From assembly GCA_902782805.1 (NCBI GenBank), contig CACZON010000004.1, forward strand, positions 1 to 29,275: a stretch of 29,275 nt of DNA, given 5' to 3'. The translations under genes and the position numbers were made by a program. Below, one piece after another: positions 13,386-21,552 of this stretch (position 1 is its first letter; each line of letters begins with the position of its first letter). The notes beneath the pieces were generated by a model. It worked only from the letters and a program-made list of their open reading frames with translations, did no database searches and was not told the DNA's origin. This DNA comes from Oscillospiraceae bacterium. GTDB taxonomy: Bacteria > Bacillota > Clostridia > Oscillospirales > Acutalibacteraceae.

Positions 13386-14345
13386 TCAGGAGTCTCCGCT
13401 CGGACGCAGAAGACGGATCACGCCGTCCTCGTGTTCGACAATCAGGCGGTTTCCCCTGATTCCCGCAGCGTCGAGCACTTCCCGCGGGATCTGAACGCGG
13501 CCGGCTTTATCGAGGACCGCGTATTCCTGCAGGGTTTCCTCCGAAAGAAGCTCGAGGCTCAGATTGCCGAGTTCCTTCATCTGCTCGATGTAGCTGCGTT
13601 TCATGATACGCTCGGAGCTGAGTTTTCCGTCGCGGATCGAAACGACGCGGTTCACCTTTTTGGAAAGGAGCCGGTCATGGGTAACGATGATGATCGTAAG
13701 TCCCCGCTCTTCGTTGAGTCTGCGGAAAACGTCAAGGATATAATTGCCGGTATTGACGTCGACCGAACCGGTCGGCTCATCGGCCAAAAGGATCTTCGGA
13801 TCGTTGGCGATCGCGATCGCGATCGCGATGCGCTGCTGTTCGCCGCCGGAAAGCTGGCTGAGCTTACTGTCCTTTTTATGCTCCATACCGACCAGCTCCA
13901 GGAGCTCGAGCGCGCGCTCCTTCTTTTCCTTGATGCTGCCGAAAAGCATCGGCATCTGGACGTTCTGGATCGCGGAAAGATACGGCATCATGTTGCGGGC
14001 ATTGTTCTGCCAGACGAAGCCGACGGTGTTTTTCTTGTAATCCACCAGCTCTTTTTCGCCGAGCTTGAAAAGATCCTTGCCATCGACGATCAGCTTGCCG
14101 GCGGAAGGCCGGTCCAATCCGCCGATCATGTTGAGGAAGGTCGATTTGCCGGATCCGCTGTTGCCGATGATCGCCATCAGCTCGCCGCGGTCAATCGTAA
14201 GATCCAATCCCTGCAGCGCGAGAACCTCGATGTCTTTGGTTTTATAGATCTTGACAAGCCCGTCGCATTCGATAATCGGCTCGGCAGCCGGTTTTTCCTC
14301 AACCGGCTGTGCGGCTGCTTCGTTATTCTTCTCCATCAGTTCCAT
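13386..14345 (-). CDS. ABC transporter ATP-binding protein (LolD/MacB-like) with C-terminal AbrB/SpoVT-like domain
   Basis: [31 protein letters not shown]; ~75-aa C-terminal extension ending [39 protein letters not shown]. Alternative start at 14336. Confidence 0.92.
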
Positions 14346-15012
14346 TGACCAGTTCCCCCGCTTCGATTTGATAAACCACGTCTCCGAGTTCCATCAAGCC
14401 GACGTCGTGCGTCGTCATAACGACCGTGATGTTTTCTTTTTCGACCAGGTCCTTGAAGATCTTCATGACCATCAGTCCGGTATTCGTATCAAGCTCCGCG
14501 GTAGGCTCATCCGCGAACAGGATTTTCGGCTTATGAGCAATCGCGCGCGCGATTGCAACGCGCTGCTGCTCGCCGCCGGACATCTCTGAAGGCATATGAT
14601 TCTTTCTTCCGGTCAGACCGACCAGCGCCAGACATTCATCCACGCGCTCGCGCCGGTTGCCGCGGATTCCCGCGAGACGAAGCGCATATTCGACGTTTTC
14701 GTAAGCGTTCATCATCGAGATCAGCGCAACGCTCTGGAAAATAAAGCCGATATTCTTGCGGCGCAGCAGTGTGCGCTGCTGATCGCCCCAATCGGTAATA
14801 TCGTTCCCATCGAAAATGACTCTTCCTTCCGTGGGCGGATCAAGCGCGCCGAGGATGTTCATCATCGTCGTTTTGCCGCTTCCGGAACGCCCGCGAAGGA
14901 TCGTCAGCTTTCCCTGAGGCACTGTAAGATCGATCCCTTTCAGCGCCCAGAACGTGGCGCCGTCGGGCTGCGGAAACCCTTTTTTAATTCCATTGGCTTC
15001 AATAATATTCAT
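14323..15012 (-). CDS. ABC transporter ATP-binding protein (LolD/MacB-like)
   Basis: GRSGSGKTT, MSGGEQQ, LFADEPTAELD, TTHD; 229 aa; overlaps both neighbours. Confidence 0.94.
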   Translation of the reverse strand: MNIIEANGIKKGFPQPDGATFWALKGIDLTVPQGKLTILRGRSGSGKTTMMNILGALDPPTEGRVIFDGNDITDWGDQQRTLLRRKNIGFIFQSVALISMMNAYENVEYALRLAGIRGNRRERVDECLALVGLTGRKNHMPSEMSGGEQQRVAIARAIAHKPKILFADEPTAELDTNTGLMVMKIFKDLVEKENITVVMTTHDVGLMELGDVVYQIEAGELVNGTDGEE

Positions 15013-17840
15013 CAGTCTTCTCCTAACTTGAGCGCCTGCGTAATACGGATTCTCGAAATGATCACGCCGAGGATCAGCATCGAGATCAGAATCATCGCCC
15101 CGATCACCAGGAACATCTTTGCGATATCGGAGGTGGAAGCCGCGATCACCATCGGCAGCGGCTCATCGTATGCGGCGTAGGAGATGCGGATCAGCGGGAT
15201 GAACAGATCCGAGGCGACCTCGCCGACGAGGATTCCGACGAGGAGGGATGATCCGGTGATGAAGAACTGTTCGTTGATGAGCATTTCGATAATCTCGCGC
15301 ATCTTCATACCCATCGCGCGCAGGATACCGAACTGCAGCGATCTCGACTGGATCGAGAGGATCCAGAAGATCAAAAAGCCGGTGACACAGAGAATCAGGA
15401 CCACGATAAATCCAACCGTGAGGATTCCGTTCGTCCCCTGGAAAATCGGATCGTTCTTGAGTGCGATGATACGGTTGCGCGTATCTTTGAACACCTGGAA
15501 GAGCGTTCCCGATTTCTCGGCAAAATCGTAGATGAAGCGCGAGGAATCGTTTTTCGTCTTGATCCAGACCTGATAGGGCTCTACCCCGTTCGCGCTCTGC
15601 AGCGTGCTTAAGTGCGCAACGATCAGATAATTGTTGCCTTCGATATAGGCGCCGTCTTCTCCGATGGAATAGGTGGAGGGATTGTAGCTCGGGAAATACG
15701 GAACGATTCCCGAAACAAAGCCGCGGATCAGCTGTCCTGATTTCGTCTTATAGAGGATGCTGTCGCCGACGGAATACTTGAACGTTTCGGCAAGGTTCTG
15801 AGAAATCAGGACGTTCGAGGCGTTCTGGCTCATCTCGTTGAGATAATTGAACCAGTGACGGTCGAGCAGACCGGGCGTCATATAGGCCGTATTGCCGAAA
15901 TCCATGGTATTGATTCCCATCAGCTGGATATCCGCAATGTAGCTGGTATCGACTTTAAGATACGCGTCGTTTGCGGAGAATACCTTGGCGATGCTGCCGA
16001 CTTCCTCCATCGATTTGTATTTTCCGAAATCCGGTTCGATATAGGTGAGCTCGAGATCGGGATTCTGCGCGACGGCAAACCGGTTATCCGCCCATTGCTC
16101 CTGCAGGACGATATCCGCGCCGGTCGAATACCGGATCATTTCTTCCTCGTTGCTGTTGATCGTCCGGGCGGCTTTCGCGTCGAAAATGCCCATCGCGATC
16201 GTCAGGATCAGGAAAACGATGATGAAGTTCTGCTGGTTCTTCGTCCGGATTACGCGCAGGAAGGAGGCGTAAACCGAAGGCGAGCAGAACCGCCGGATCA
16301 GCAGATACGCGAGCTTGATCACGAGCGGGATCAGCCGCAGCGCAACCATGCCGGCGCCGATGATAAAGAGCGAGCTTGAAAGATAGAGCAGCGGGTCGAG
16401 CGCGGCACCGTCCGCGACCTTTTTCGCCAAAAACTCTTTCTGCTGGTTGAAGGTATAGTAGCCGTAAATGGAAACGAGGAAGATCACAACGTCGAGGAAG
16501 ATCTTCTGCCACCACGTACCGGCGCCGAGGGTGTTTTTCTTCTGCTTCTGGGCAACGATCGAAACCTTCGAATAAGAAATTACGGGAAGTACCATGACCG
16601 CGATCGAGAAGATCGCCGCGGCGGCCGCAAAGAGCAGCACCTCGCCGGTCATCCTGGTCGGCAGCGGCTTTCTCGAGACAAATTCGAGGAACTCGTTGGA
16701 AGAGCCGATCACCTGGCAGATCAAAAACGAGAGCGGAATGCCCGCAGCCGCGCTGAAGATGGAAACGATCACGCTCTGCATAAAATAGGTGGATAGGATC
16801 TGCCCGCGGGAAGCGCCGCGGCTCTTCATGATCGAAATCTCCGCCTGTTCCATCTCAAGCATCTGCTTCGAAACCATATAGATAAATACGCCGAGCAGGA
16901 TATAGATCGGCACCTGAAGCACCAGGAGCGTTACGCGGACCTTTGCGGCATCCTTCTGGAAAACCGTAAGGATATTTCCGAAGCAATCACGGTAGTTCGT
17001 ATTGCGCAGCGACTTATAGACGCCGGGCTGCTCCTGCGCAAAGTTGTAAAGCTTGTCGACGCCGTCAATATCCATATGTTCCACGTCGAGCACGATATTC
17101 CAGCTTCCCTTGACAATGAAGAGCTGGTTCTCGGGATTGATGAACTGCTCGTAGAAAATGCTTTCGGACGTGAAAAATTCCTTCGTATAAGACGAGGGCG
17201 GATCAACCCAGTAGGGATCGTCGTCGGACTTATTGCGGAATACGCCGACAACCTTTACACGGATCAGGCCGTCGTCCTTTGATTTTTTGTTGGTAACGGT
17301 CAGCGTATCGCCGACGACCAGCATCTGCCGGACCATCATGCGTTCGCTGATGACGCAGGGAATGAAGCCGTCGGAATCGATCTGATCTGTAAACCATTCG
17401 CCCGAAATAATCTCGCCGTGTTCCGTCATACCGCTCAAAAAGCCGATTCTGCCGGACATCGTCGTTTCACGGGAGGCGTTCCGGGAGACGTCGTAGTTGA
17501 AAGAGAGCGGGTCGACATAGTAATTGTGGGAAGCTACGGCAGTCGGAACGCCGGATTCCTCTTCGATCGCGTTCATCTTCGATTCGGAAAAATCGAAGTT
17601 CTCGGTGTTTACGCCTACGTTGCCGCGGCTGAGCATTTCCGCGGTTACGTAAACGGTTCCCGCGTTGCGGTTGTTTTCGGCGGCGTAGTTTTCGAAATCG
17701 CTGATCAGCATCTTCTGAAGAACTGATCGCGTATAAACGGAGTTGCAGCAAGCAATGGAAATCAGCAGAATATTACCGATCAAAAGGCAGAACACCATCC
17801 ACTTTTTGTTGCGCATTTTTTGAAAAATAAACGTGAACAT
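15012..17840 (-). CDS. FtsX/MacB-type (type VII) ABC permease, 942 aa, two extracytoplasmic domains
   Basis: Two repeats of TM + large hydrophilic domain + TM bundle, each with the FtsX-type motif (EISIMKSRGASRGQI; QFGILRAMGMKMREI). Confidence 0.9.
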   Translation of the reverse strand: MFTFIFQKMRNKKWMVFCLLIGNILLISIACCNSVYTRSVLQKMLISDFENYAAENNRNAGTVYVTAEMLSRGNVGVNTENFDFSESKMNAIEEESGVPTAVASHNYYVDPLSFNYDVSRNASRETTMSGRIGFLSGMTEHGEIISGEWFTDQIDSDGFIPCVISERMMVRQMLVVGDTLTVTNKKSKDDGLIRVKVVGVFRNKSDDDPYWVDPPSSYTKEFFTSESIFYEQFINPENQLFIVKGSWNIVLDVEHMDIDGVDKLYNFAQEQPGVYKSLRNTNYRDCFGNILTVFQKDAAKVRVTLLVLQVPIYILLGVFIYMVSKQMLEMEQAEISIMKSRGASRGQILSTYFMQSVIVSIFSAAAGIPLSFLICQVIGSSNEFLEFVSRKPLPTRMTGEVLLFAAAAAIFSIAVMVLPVISYSKVSIVAQKQKKNTLGAGTWWQKIFLDVVIFLVSIYGYYTFNQQKEFLAKKVADGAALDPLLYLSSSLFIIGAGMVALRLIPLVIKLAYLLIRRFCSPSVYASFLRVIRTKNQQNFIIVFLILTIAMGIFDAKAARTINSNEEEMIRYSTGADIVLQEQWADNRFAVAQNPDLELTYIEPDFGKYKSMEEVGSIAKVFSANDAYLKVDTSYIADIQLMGINTMDFGNTAYMTPGLLDRHWFNYLNEMSQNASNVLISQNLAETFKYSVGDSILYKTKSGQLIRGFVSGIVPYFPSYNPSTYSIGEDGAYIEGNNYLIVAHLSTLQSANGVEPYQVWIKTKNDSSRFIYDFAEKSGTLFQVFKDTRNRIIALKNDPIFQGTNGILTVGFIVVLILCVTGFLIFWILSIQSRSLQFGILRAMGMKMREIIEMLINEQFFITGSSLLVGILVGEVASDLFIPLIRISYAAYDEPLPMVIAASTSDIAKMFLVIGAMILISMLILGVIISRIRITQALKLGED

Positions 17841-21422: not shown

Positions 21423-21523
21423 GGCGATTCACTTCCCGAAAAAACGTATCGCTCCGAAGAAATACCGCCGGAGCAAAACGGCCGTTTGCGAATGGGCACA
21501 AACTCCCACCATAATTGATTTTA

Positions 21524-21552
21524 ATGATACCCTTTTTGTGCATTGTTGTCAA
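21524..21552 (-). promoter_or_regulatory. sigma-A-type promoter of the small-protein/MFP/ABC operon
   Basis: Minus strand TTGACA-17 nt-TATCAT. Confidence 0.78.

Follow-up and report, generated by a model that had tools for sequence, protein, structure and literature searches.

Positions 13386-21552 of a 29,275-nucleotide (nt) stretch of Oscillospiraceae bacterium contig CACZON010000004.1 (assembly GCA_902782805.1), hereafter the window, hold a promoter and seven co-directional genes on the minus strand. In the order of that strand, the genes encode a DUF6472 protein, three MacA-type adaptors of the membrane fusion protein kind (MFP1, MFP2 and MFP3), a fused permease and two ATP-binding cassette (ABC) ATPases (ATPa and ATPb). 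We describe the six genes from MFP1 to ATPb as a Type VII ABC cassette with MacA-type adaptors and a new combination of parts, namely a YbbP-like fused permease, MacAB-like adaptors, three adaptor paralogues and two ATPase paralogues. In this combination it differs from every described system that we found. The architecture is well supported by direct observation of gene content, folds, integrity of the motifs, conservation of gene order, age of the paralogues and a natural fusion of MFP2 with MFP3. The initial annotation of this DNA had called the exporter uncharacterized, and the literature we searched likewise contained no description of an architecture with three adaptors, a fused permease and two ATPases; an ivermectin preprint that names yknX and yknY deals with streptococci and has no bearing on the cassette.

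MacB-type pumps are models of ABC motors that perform extramembrane work and they contribute to tolerance of peptides and antibiotics. To our knowledge, every MacB-type pump studied is built from identical copies of adaptor, permease half and ATPase, so that the roles of non-equivalent positions are genetically inseparable. In the cassette described here, nature has split non-equivalent positions into different genes.

Components of the cassette

A word-seeded search with MFP3 alone returned four close relatives, and orthologues were therefore gathered via the neighboring permease. About 110 loci were collected in this way and their genes were classified by hidden Markov models on stop-to-stop frames. 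The loci were selected by permease similarity and many are close kin; about 25 distinct lineages remained after removal of near-copies. A scan of genome contigs with a single permease query yielded four loci.

The two ATPases are 39% identical and both retain Walker A, Q-loop, signature, Walker B and H-loop, which agrees with the initial reading of two distinct ATPases with intact motifs. The catalytic motifs are conserved in 72 ATPa orthologues and invariant in 37 ATPb orthologues. Since all motifs are kept in ATPa as well as ATPb, there is no degenerate ATP site. Across the family, ATPb sequences are 55-72% identical. The NCBIfam model of LolD (TIGR02211) scored 224.5 bits with ATPb and 182.7 bits with ATPa, both below its cut-off of 307.75, and ATPa additionally scored on FtsE and DevA, again below the curated cut-offs. 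ATPa and ATPb are present together in every complete locus. Five genomes have an adaptor-permease pair without neighboring ATPases; elsewhere, each of them encodes an ATPb that is 60-64% identical, including its tail. In four of these five, ATPa lies alongside the unlinked ATPb, alone or beside a second permease copy. In G079, the remaining genome, another permease copy lies immediately before ATPb and the retrieved locus gave no separate ATPa hit. The heterodimeric nucleotide-binding domain (NBD) proposed at the outset is supported by this family-wide pairing. A second permease copy adjoining the ATPases was observed in genomes G335 and G079.

ATPb carries a C-terminal tail that resembles an AbrB/MazE half-barrel. 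The match of the source sequence to PF04014 (MazE_antitoxin) is weak (E 9.1e-4, 19.6 bits, cut-off 24.7), while 24 of the 37 ATPb orthologues match this model at E≤0.01, the best of them with E 9.8e-8. The tail of 45 residues is conserved in all 37, which include single-adaptor relatives and unlinked ATPa-ATPb operons, and residues E274, D279, R283 and P287 are invariant, in single-adaptor relatives too. Among the orthologues examined, no ATPa had such a tail. AbrB-like half-barrels normally pair and normally require a second copy for folding. Two side observations concern proteins of this kind in the Atlas. Judged by language-model features, ATPase clusters of 494-552 amino acids (aa) from Actinomycetota and Chloroflexota are ATPb-like and may be fused double ATPases that belong to related systems. 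A feature search with the ATPb tail returned scores below 0.8 and provides a lead only.

In the permease, Pfam identified FtsX (73.6 bits) and MacB_PCD (36.2 bits), with two matches each. The AlphaFold (AF2) model, based on 35 homologues, reached a predicted local distance difference test (pLDDT) value of 80 and a predicted template modeling score of 0.71. It contains 10 transmembrane (TM) helices arranged as two FtsX-type modules, each of which has a MacB-type core domain between its first two helices. These periplasmic-core domains are of mixed alpha/beta structure and span residues ~60-285 (TM1-2) and ~577-795 (TM7-8). The best Foldseek match of the model is YbbP (9ge6_A, E 2.3e-19), with BceB in second place (2e-12) and MacB, Spr0695, LolC/E, HrtB and YtrF as further matches. 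When the permease profile was compared with solved permeases by sequence, only LolF/LolC was matched, at 2e-5 and across TM2-4. The earlier proposal of a pseudo-dimeric permease with two extracytoplasmic domains is thus supported by the 10-TM model and the match to YbbP, and sequence and model together place the protein in the Type VII ABC (MacB/FtsX) superfamily. The two halves have no detectable mutual sequence similarity (E 0.77), and hence their duplication cannot be dated.

The three adaptors are genuinely of MacA type, as had been assumed. Their profiles give full-length matches with E values between 4e-27 and 5e-33 and cover ~320 residues of MacA. MFP1 matches MacA structure 4dk0 with E 2e-32, MFP2 matches E. 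coli MacA with E 5e-33 and MFP3 matches MacA with E 3.8e-27. The open reading frame listed for MFP1 (20111-21328, 405 aa) overlaps the DUF6472 gene. From the sequence, the likely start codon is a GTG at 21202, preceded by AAAGGGG; it yields a protein of 363 aa and a gap of 34 nt. Cys22 of the MFP1 lipobox is invariant among orthologues; in MFP2, Gly19 and Cys20 are kept in at least 90% of them. The NCBIfam RND_mfp matches of both proteins are sub-threshold. MFP3 as encoded in the source genome lacks a lipobox and instead carries a signal peptide or a membrane anchor, and a Pfam search with it gave zero matches. Its AF2 model (pLDDT 84) comprises a lipoyl domain, a hairpin, a beta-barrel and a membrane-proximal domain, the hairpin being formed by helices 115-152 and 156-199 (38 + 44 residues). 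The best fold match of this model is MacA of MacAB-TolC (5nik_D, E 3.8e-17, template modeling scores 0.65/0.72).

Pairwise, the adaptors are 21-23% identical or their similarity lies below detection. In a tree of 104 adaptors from ~25 diverged loci, they fall into three clades by gene position with support values of 99, 100 and 99. The single adaptors of distant loci form a clade of their own (support 97) that adjoins MFP1 (84). As the clades follow gene position, the three adaptors represent three old orthologous sets rather than recent redundant copies. The initial annotation had named recent duplicates absent from relatives as the outcome that would speak against it: the position-specific clades and the low identity contradict a recent duplication, whereas the additional adaptors are indeed missing from the distant single-adaptor clade.

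Four loci (L039, L099, L100 and L111) encode natural MFP2-MFP3 fusions of 722-764 aa. In these proteins, the best-scoring model is that of MFP2 for the N-terminal half (194-247 bits) and that of MFP3 for the C-terminal half (57-163 bits), and none of the four has a second signal peptide at the joint. In the permease tree, the fusion loci are a single clade nested within the three-adaptor loci. The fusion implies that MFP2 and MFP3 are equimolar and adjacent. Combined with a constant gene order, close spacing and one shared promoter, it favors one mixed ring over three homo-oligomers. Of the hetero-oligomeric adaptor channel across the cell wall that had been suggested, the mixed ring is therefore favored by the fusion, the order and the spacing, whereas the crossing of the wall is unsupported. 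In a complex prediction with MFP1 (residues 30-363), MFP2 (35-365) and, as partner, MFP3 (55-385), a control in which MFP1 was replaced scored equally high.

Conservation and spread

Among 55 fully flanked loci, 36 show exactly the order MFP1-MFP2-MFP3-permease-ATPa-ATPb. Another four retain three adaptor units and have an ATPase part that is rearranged or extended, and the remaining 15 belong to a distant clade with one adaptor and a permease that is 30-36% identical. No close-clade locus with full flanks lacks an adaptor. The single-adaptor loci also form one clade in the permease tree (support 100). Both the adaptor and the permease tree are unrooted, so that a gain to three adaptors and a loss of two are indistinguishable.

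The permease family comprises 867 clusters at 50% identity with E≤1e-30, and hits were obtained in 58 of 399 sampled Clostridia species. The three-adaptor form includes one cluster at 90% identity with 1563 members, among them human-gut contigs. The cassette is common among Clostridia of the gut, and gut communities contain its three-adaptor form in abundance. Carriers of that form include Christensenellales and gut 'Clostridium/Eubacterium sp.', and carriers of the single-adaptor form include Ruminiclostridium herbifermentans and Mahella australiensis. The names of permease relatives in databases are generic, such as 'ABC transporter permease' or 'FtsX-like permease family protein'.

Several loci deviate from the common arrangement. 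In several Clostridia families (L021-L026, L029, L032, L034, L036; L124-L126) the single-adaptor form is split, with the adaptor-permease pair apart from an ATPa-ATPb operon. One metagenomic locus (L018) has a gene for a GNAT acetyltransferase between MFP1 and MFP2 (6313-6813) and a two-component system a few genes upstream. In L105 (3900-9700), two full-length fused permeases of 951 and 955 aa apparently follow the three adaptors in tandem, and no ATPase was detected directly after them.

Transcription unit, neighboring genes and host

The promoter, the 61-aa Cys protein, the three adaptors, the 942-aa permease, the two ATPases and the closing terminator listed in the initial annotation were all found again on the minus strand (Table 1). 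Its statement that gaps are at most 34 nt or overlapping also holds: from DUF6472 to ATPb the intergenic distances are +34, +13, -14, +15, -1 and -23 nt. The promoter is the top promoter-like match within 13100-21800 and is situated directly downstream of the terminator of the preceding gene (21621-21651). For the hairpin behind ATPb, none of 200 shuffled sequences folded equally well; it is absent from the list of a consensus terminator scan because its U-tract is weak. The favored reading of these signals is that the six pump genes and the upstream DUF6472 gene form one transcription unit, and DUF6472 is probably co-transcribed with the pump in the source genome.

Table 1. Features of the cassette and its control elements in the window, in the direction of transcription
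Feature	Coordinates	Strand	Evidence
Sigma-70-like promoter, TTGACA-17-TATCAT	21524..21552	-	11/12 positions matched
DUF6472 protein, 61 aa, four Cys, TTG start	21237..21422	-	Pfam PF20076, 81.7 bits vs cut-off 27
MFP1, MacA-type adaptor lipoprotein, likely GTG start	20111..21202	-	NCBIfam RND_mfp 2.6e-18; profile vs MacA
MFP2, MacA-type adaptor lipoprotein, lipobox ending with Cys20	19000..20097	-	NCBIfam RND_mfp 1.1e-26; profile vs MacA
MFP3, fast-evolving MacA-type adaptor	17856..19013	-	Profile vs MacA; AF2 model
Fused double-FtsX permease, 942 aa, 10 TM	15012..17840	-	Pfam, AF2 model, Foldseek
ATPa, ABC ATPase, 229 aa	14323..15012	-	Pfam ABC_tran 9.7e-35
ATPb, ABC ATPase with C-terminal tail, 319 aa	13386..14345	-	Pfam ABC_tran 5.2e-33
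AbrB/MazE-like half-barrel tail of ATPb, residues ~274-319	13386..13526	-	Pfam MazE_antitoxin, conservation
Terminator-like hairpin 3' of the ATPb stop	13337..13375	-	-21.8 kcal/mol, z -4.3

RNA libraries from two studies of the ruminant gut contain contigs that correspond to parts of each of the six pump genes (≥95% identity) and that span the MFP1/MFP2, MFP2/MFP3 and ATPa/ATPb junctions. These contigs are short and of low depth, and gaps in their cover, including the promoter and DUF6472, are uninformative. They give a weak hint that the six pump genes are transcribed.

The source genome is a metagenome-assembled genome of a rumen Clostridia bacterium, with a size of 1.86 Mb and 79% completeness, and its closest public relative is an uncultured rumen Clostridiales genome. 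Searches for OEP/TolC (PF02321) and Omp85 (PF01103), which were positive in seven diderm control genomes, found no such gene in this 79%-complete genome, in keeping with the earlier remark that a TolC-like gene is absent. Judging from gene content, the organism likely has a monoderm envelope.

Upstream of the unit, three tandem genes without Pfam match (21673-24577, minus strand; 324, 317 and 309 aa) are separated from the pump by the terminator and the promoter, and two of the three keep their position in a relative of the same genus (L040). Downstream (9784-13292) lies a methionine/S-adenosylmethionine (SAM) cycle cluster with homocysteine S-methyltransferase, the S-component of an energy-coupling factor transporter on the opposite strand and SAM synthetase. 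In the close relative L040, this cluster (12546-16274) continues with LuxS.

A proposed exporter among related systems

We consider it probable that the cassette encodes an asymmetric Type VII ABC exporter in which the fused permease, ATPa and ATPb and a mixed ring of three adaptors act on amphiphilic cargo. What we infer about stoichiometry, tube, transport direction and cargo is as follows. Each permease half would have its own coupling site, so that one ATPa and one ATPb are bound, and both ATP sites would be canonical. On the outer face, the three adaptors would be present in equal numbers and build a single ring, in the simplest case a hexamer (MFP1-MFP2-MFP3)x2. MacAB places six adaptors on two permease halves, with three non-equivalent positions per half, and a (1-2-3)x2 ring therefore fits the geometry. 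Modeled on YbbAP (PMC12646458) and on MacAB, YknWXYZ and Spr0693-0695 (PMC8277102), our proposal is that ATP bound at the ATPa-ATPb dimer would draw the stalk helices together. Through mechanotransmission, ATP binding and hydrolysis would shift the two unlike periplasmic domains, and a substrate from the outer leaflet or the extracytoplasmic face would be squeezed out through the adaptor tube, away from the membrane. No TolC partner would take part. The most likely class of cargo would be membrane-active amphiphiles such as antimicrobial peptides, lipopeptides or detergent-like gut compounds. We favor such cargo because studied monoderm relatives protect against peptide toxins and YbbP handles hydrophobic compounds of the membrane. 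Knowing the cargo could show how membrane-active compounds are tolerated by common Clostridia of gut and rumen.

More tentatively, and with less confidence than we place in an asymmetric exporter as such, we suggest that the adaptors might be obligate, position-specific subunits of one (MFP1-MFP2-MFP3)x2 ring above an NBD heterodimer, with the ATPb tail either pairing two pumps or sensing a cytoplasmic ligand. If true, the cassette would be the first Type VII ABC machine with full asymmetry and a natural system for dissecting the role of each adaptor position.

Several points weigh against the proposed exporter. A MacA-like tube with the known dimensions of MacA is shorter than a typical Gram-positive wall, which leaves a passage across the wall unsupported. 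With one ATPb tail per pump of one ATPa and one ATPb, the pairing of half-barrels is a misfit with a simple pump. Flanking genes differ from locus to locus and thus give no hint of the cargo. As the genome is 79% complete, the absence of TolC or BamA is unproven, and the RNA-library contigs possibly include DNA carry-over. Finally, YbbP, the nearest solved permease, has no adaptors, and its lipid-like substrates are handed to a hydrolase and not exported (PMC12646458).

This last point leads to a reading that we regard as unlikely, in which the cassette is not an exporter. It could be a mechanotransducer or extractor like YbbAP-TesA, LolCDE or FtsEX that uses the adaptors as a scaffold and pulls a lipid, lipoprotein or glycolipid from the membrane or switches on a wall-acting enzyme. 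In favor of this reading, YbbP, the best fold match of the permease, supplies a hydrolase with hydrophobic compounds that it extracts, ATPb has LolD as its top NCBIfam match (224 bits), ATPa also scores on FtsE and DevA, and a divergent PG_binding_1 gene adjoins the cassette in some loci. However, the scores on LolD, FtsE and DevA all remain below the curated cut-offs, and in each of the three adaptors the MacA layout is complete, with the long tube-forming hairpin. Moreover, no hydrolase or chaperone gene adjoining the cassette is conserved in the loci surveyed. Even if the cassette is an exporter, the three adaptors could be alternatives, each forming a homo-hexamer on the same pump for differing substrates or conditions. 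The solved adaptors MacA, YknX and Spr0693 are homo-hexamers and the distant relatives of the family have a single adaptor, but we judge such an exchange of adaptors improbable: the three genes always occur together in the same order, tightly spaced or overlapping behind one promoter, none of them is missing from any close-clade locus, and the natural fusion forces MFP2 and MFP3 into equal numbers and adjacency.

Very improbable in our view is a dedicated secretion system for a local peptide, with DUF6472 as its cargo or precursor. The position of DUF6472, 34 nt upstream behind the same promoter, would suit this role, and both ATPases match models of bacteriocin-export ATPases, if sub-threshold. 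Yet DUF6472 adjoins an MFP gene in only two of 14 DUF6472 loci, both within the source genus, and it is absent from all three-adaptor loci outside this genus. It occurs as a single copy in 22 of 61 related genomes, in many of which the permease query found nothing, and its N terminus has no signal or leader-like sequence. DUF6472 is thus a genus-specific neighbor and neither a component nor the cargo; the inclusion of the 61-aa Cys protein in the machine by the initial annotation is not borne out.

The asymmetric exporter that we propose shares features with several known systems. YbbAP-TesA of E. coli (PDB 9GE6/9GE7/9GE8) has a likewise single-chain 10-TM permease with Porter/Sabre-type domains between TM1-2 and TM7-8 and a TM5-6 linker. 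YbbP consists of two ancient repeats, each with its own coupling site, which TM5-6 connect (PMC12646458). YbbA forms a homodimer, while the cassette has two ATPases that are 39% identical, and YbbAP docks TesA and has no adaptors, in contrast to the three MacA-like adaptors found here. A TesA-type hydrolase is not conserved beside the cassette in the loci surveyed, and no genome-wide search for TesA was made. BceAB-type peptide-resistance transporters also have a single-chain 10-TM permease of the FtsX family. However, BceB has one large extracellular domain, BceA is a homodimer, a two-component system serves as partner and adaptors are absent. As to LolCDE, the LolD scores of both ATPases lie below the cut-off of 307.75 and there is no sign of an outer membrane.

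MacAB-TolC of E. coli (PDB 5NIK), Spr0693-0695 of S. pneumoniae and YknWXYZ of Bacillus have FtsX-type modules, MacB-type domains, MacA-type adaptors and LolD/MacB-like ATPases in common with the cassette. The Gram-positive representatives with hexameric adaptors, YknWXYZ and Spr0693-0695, protect against peptide toxins and antimicrobial peptides (PMC8277102) and, like the cassette, have no outer-membrane partner. A duct of the TolC family, which characterizes MacAB-TolC, was not found in the 79%-complete genome, and a fourth membrane protein like YknW was not seen in the cassette. All three systems are symmetric, with a homodimeric permease and a single type each of adaptor and ATPase, whereas the cassette has a fused permease, two ATPase types, three adaptor types and an AbrB-like tail on one ATPase. 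More than one adaptor paralogue per pump is known from TriABC-OpmH of Pseudomonas aeruginosa, in which two different adaptors act on one pump (PMC8277102). In profile searches, an engineered TriA-TriB fusion (PDB 6VEJ) ranks among the top hits of each of the three adaptors of the cassette, and the natural MFP2-MFP3 fusions resemble it. TriC, however, is a proton-driven trimer of the resistance-nodulation-division type that works in a diderm with an outer-membrane channel, whereas the cassette combines an ABC motor with three adaptors in what is likely a monoderm.

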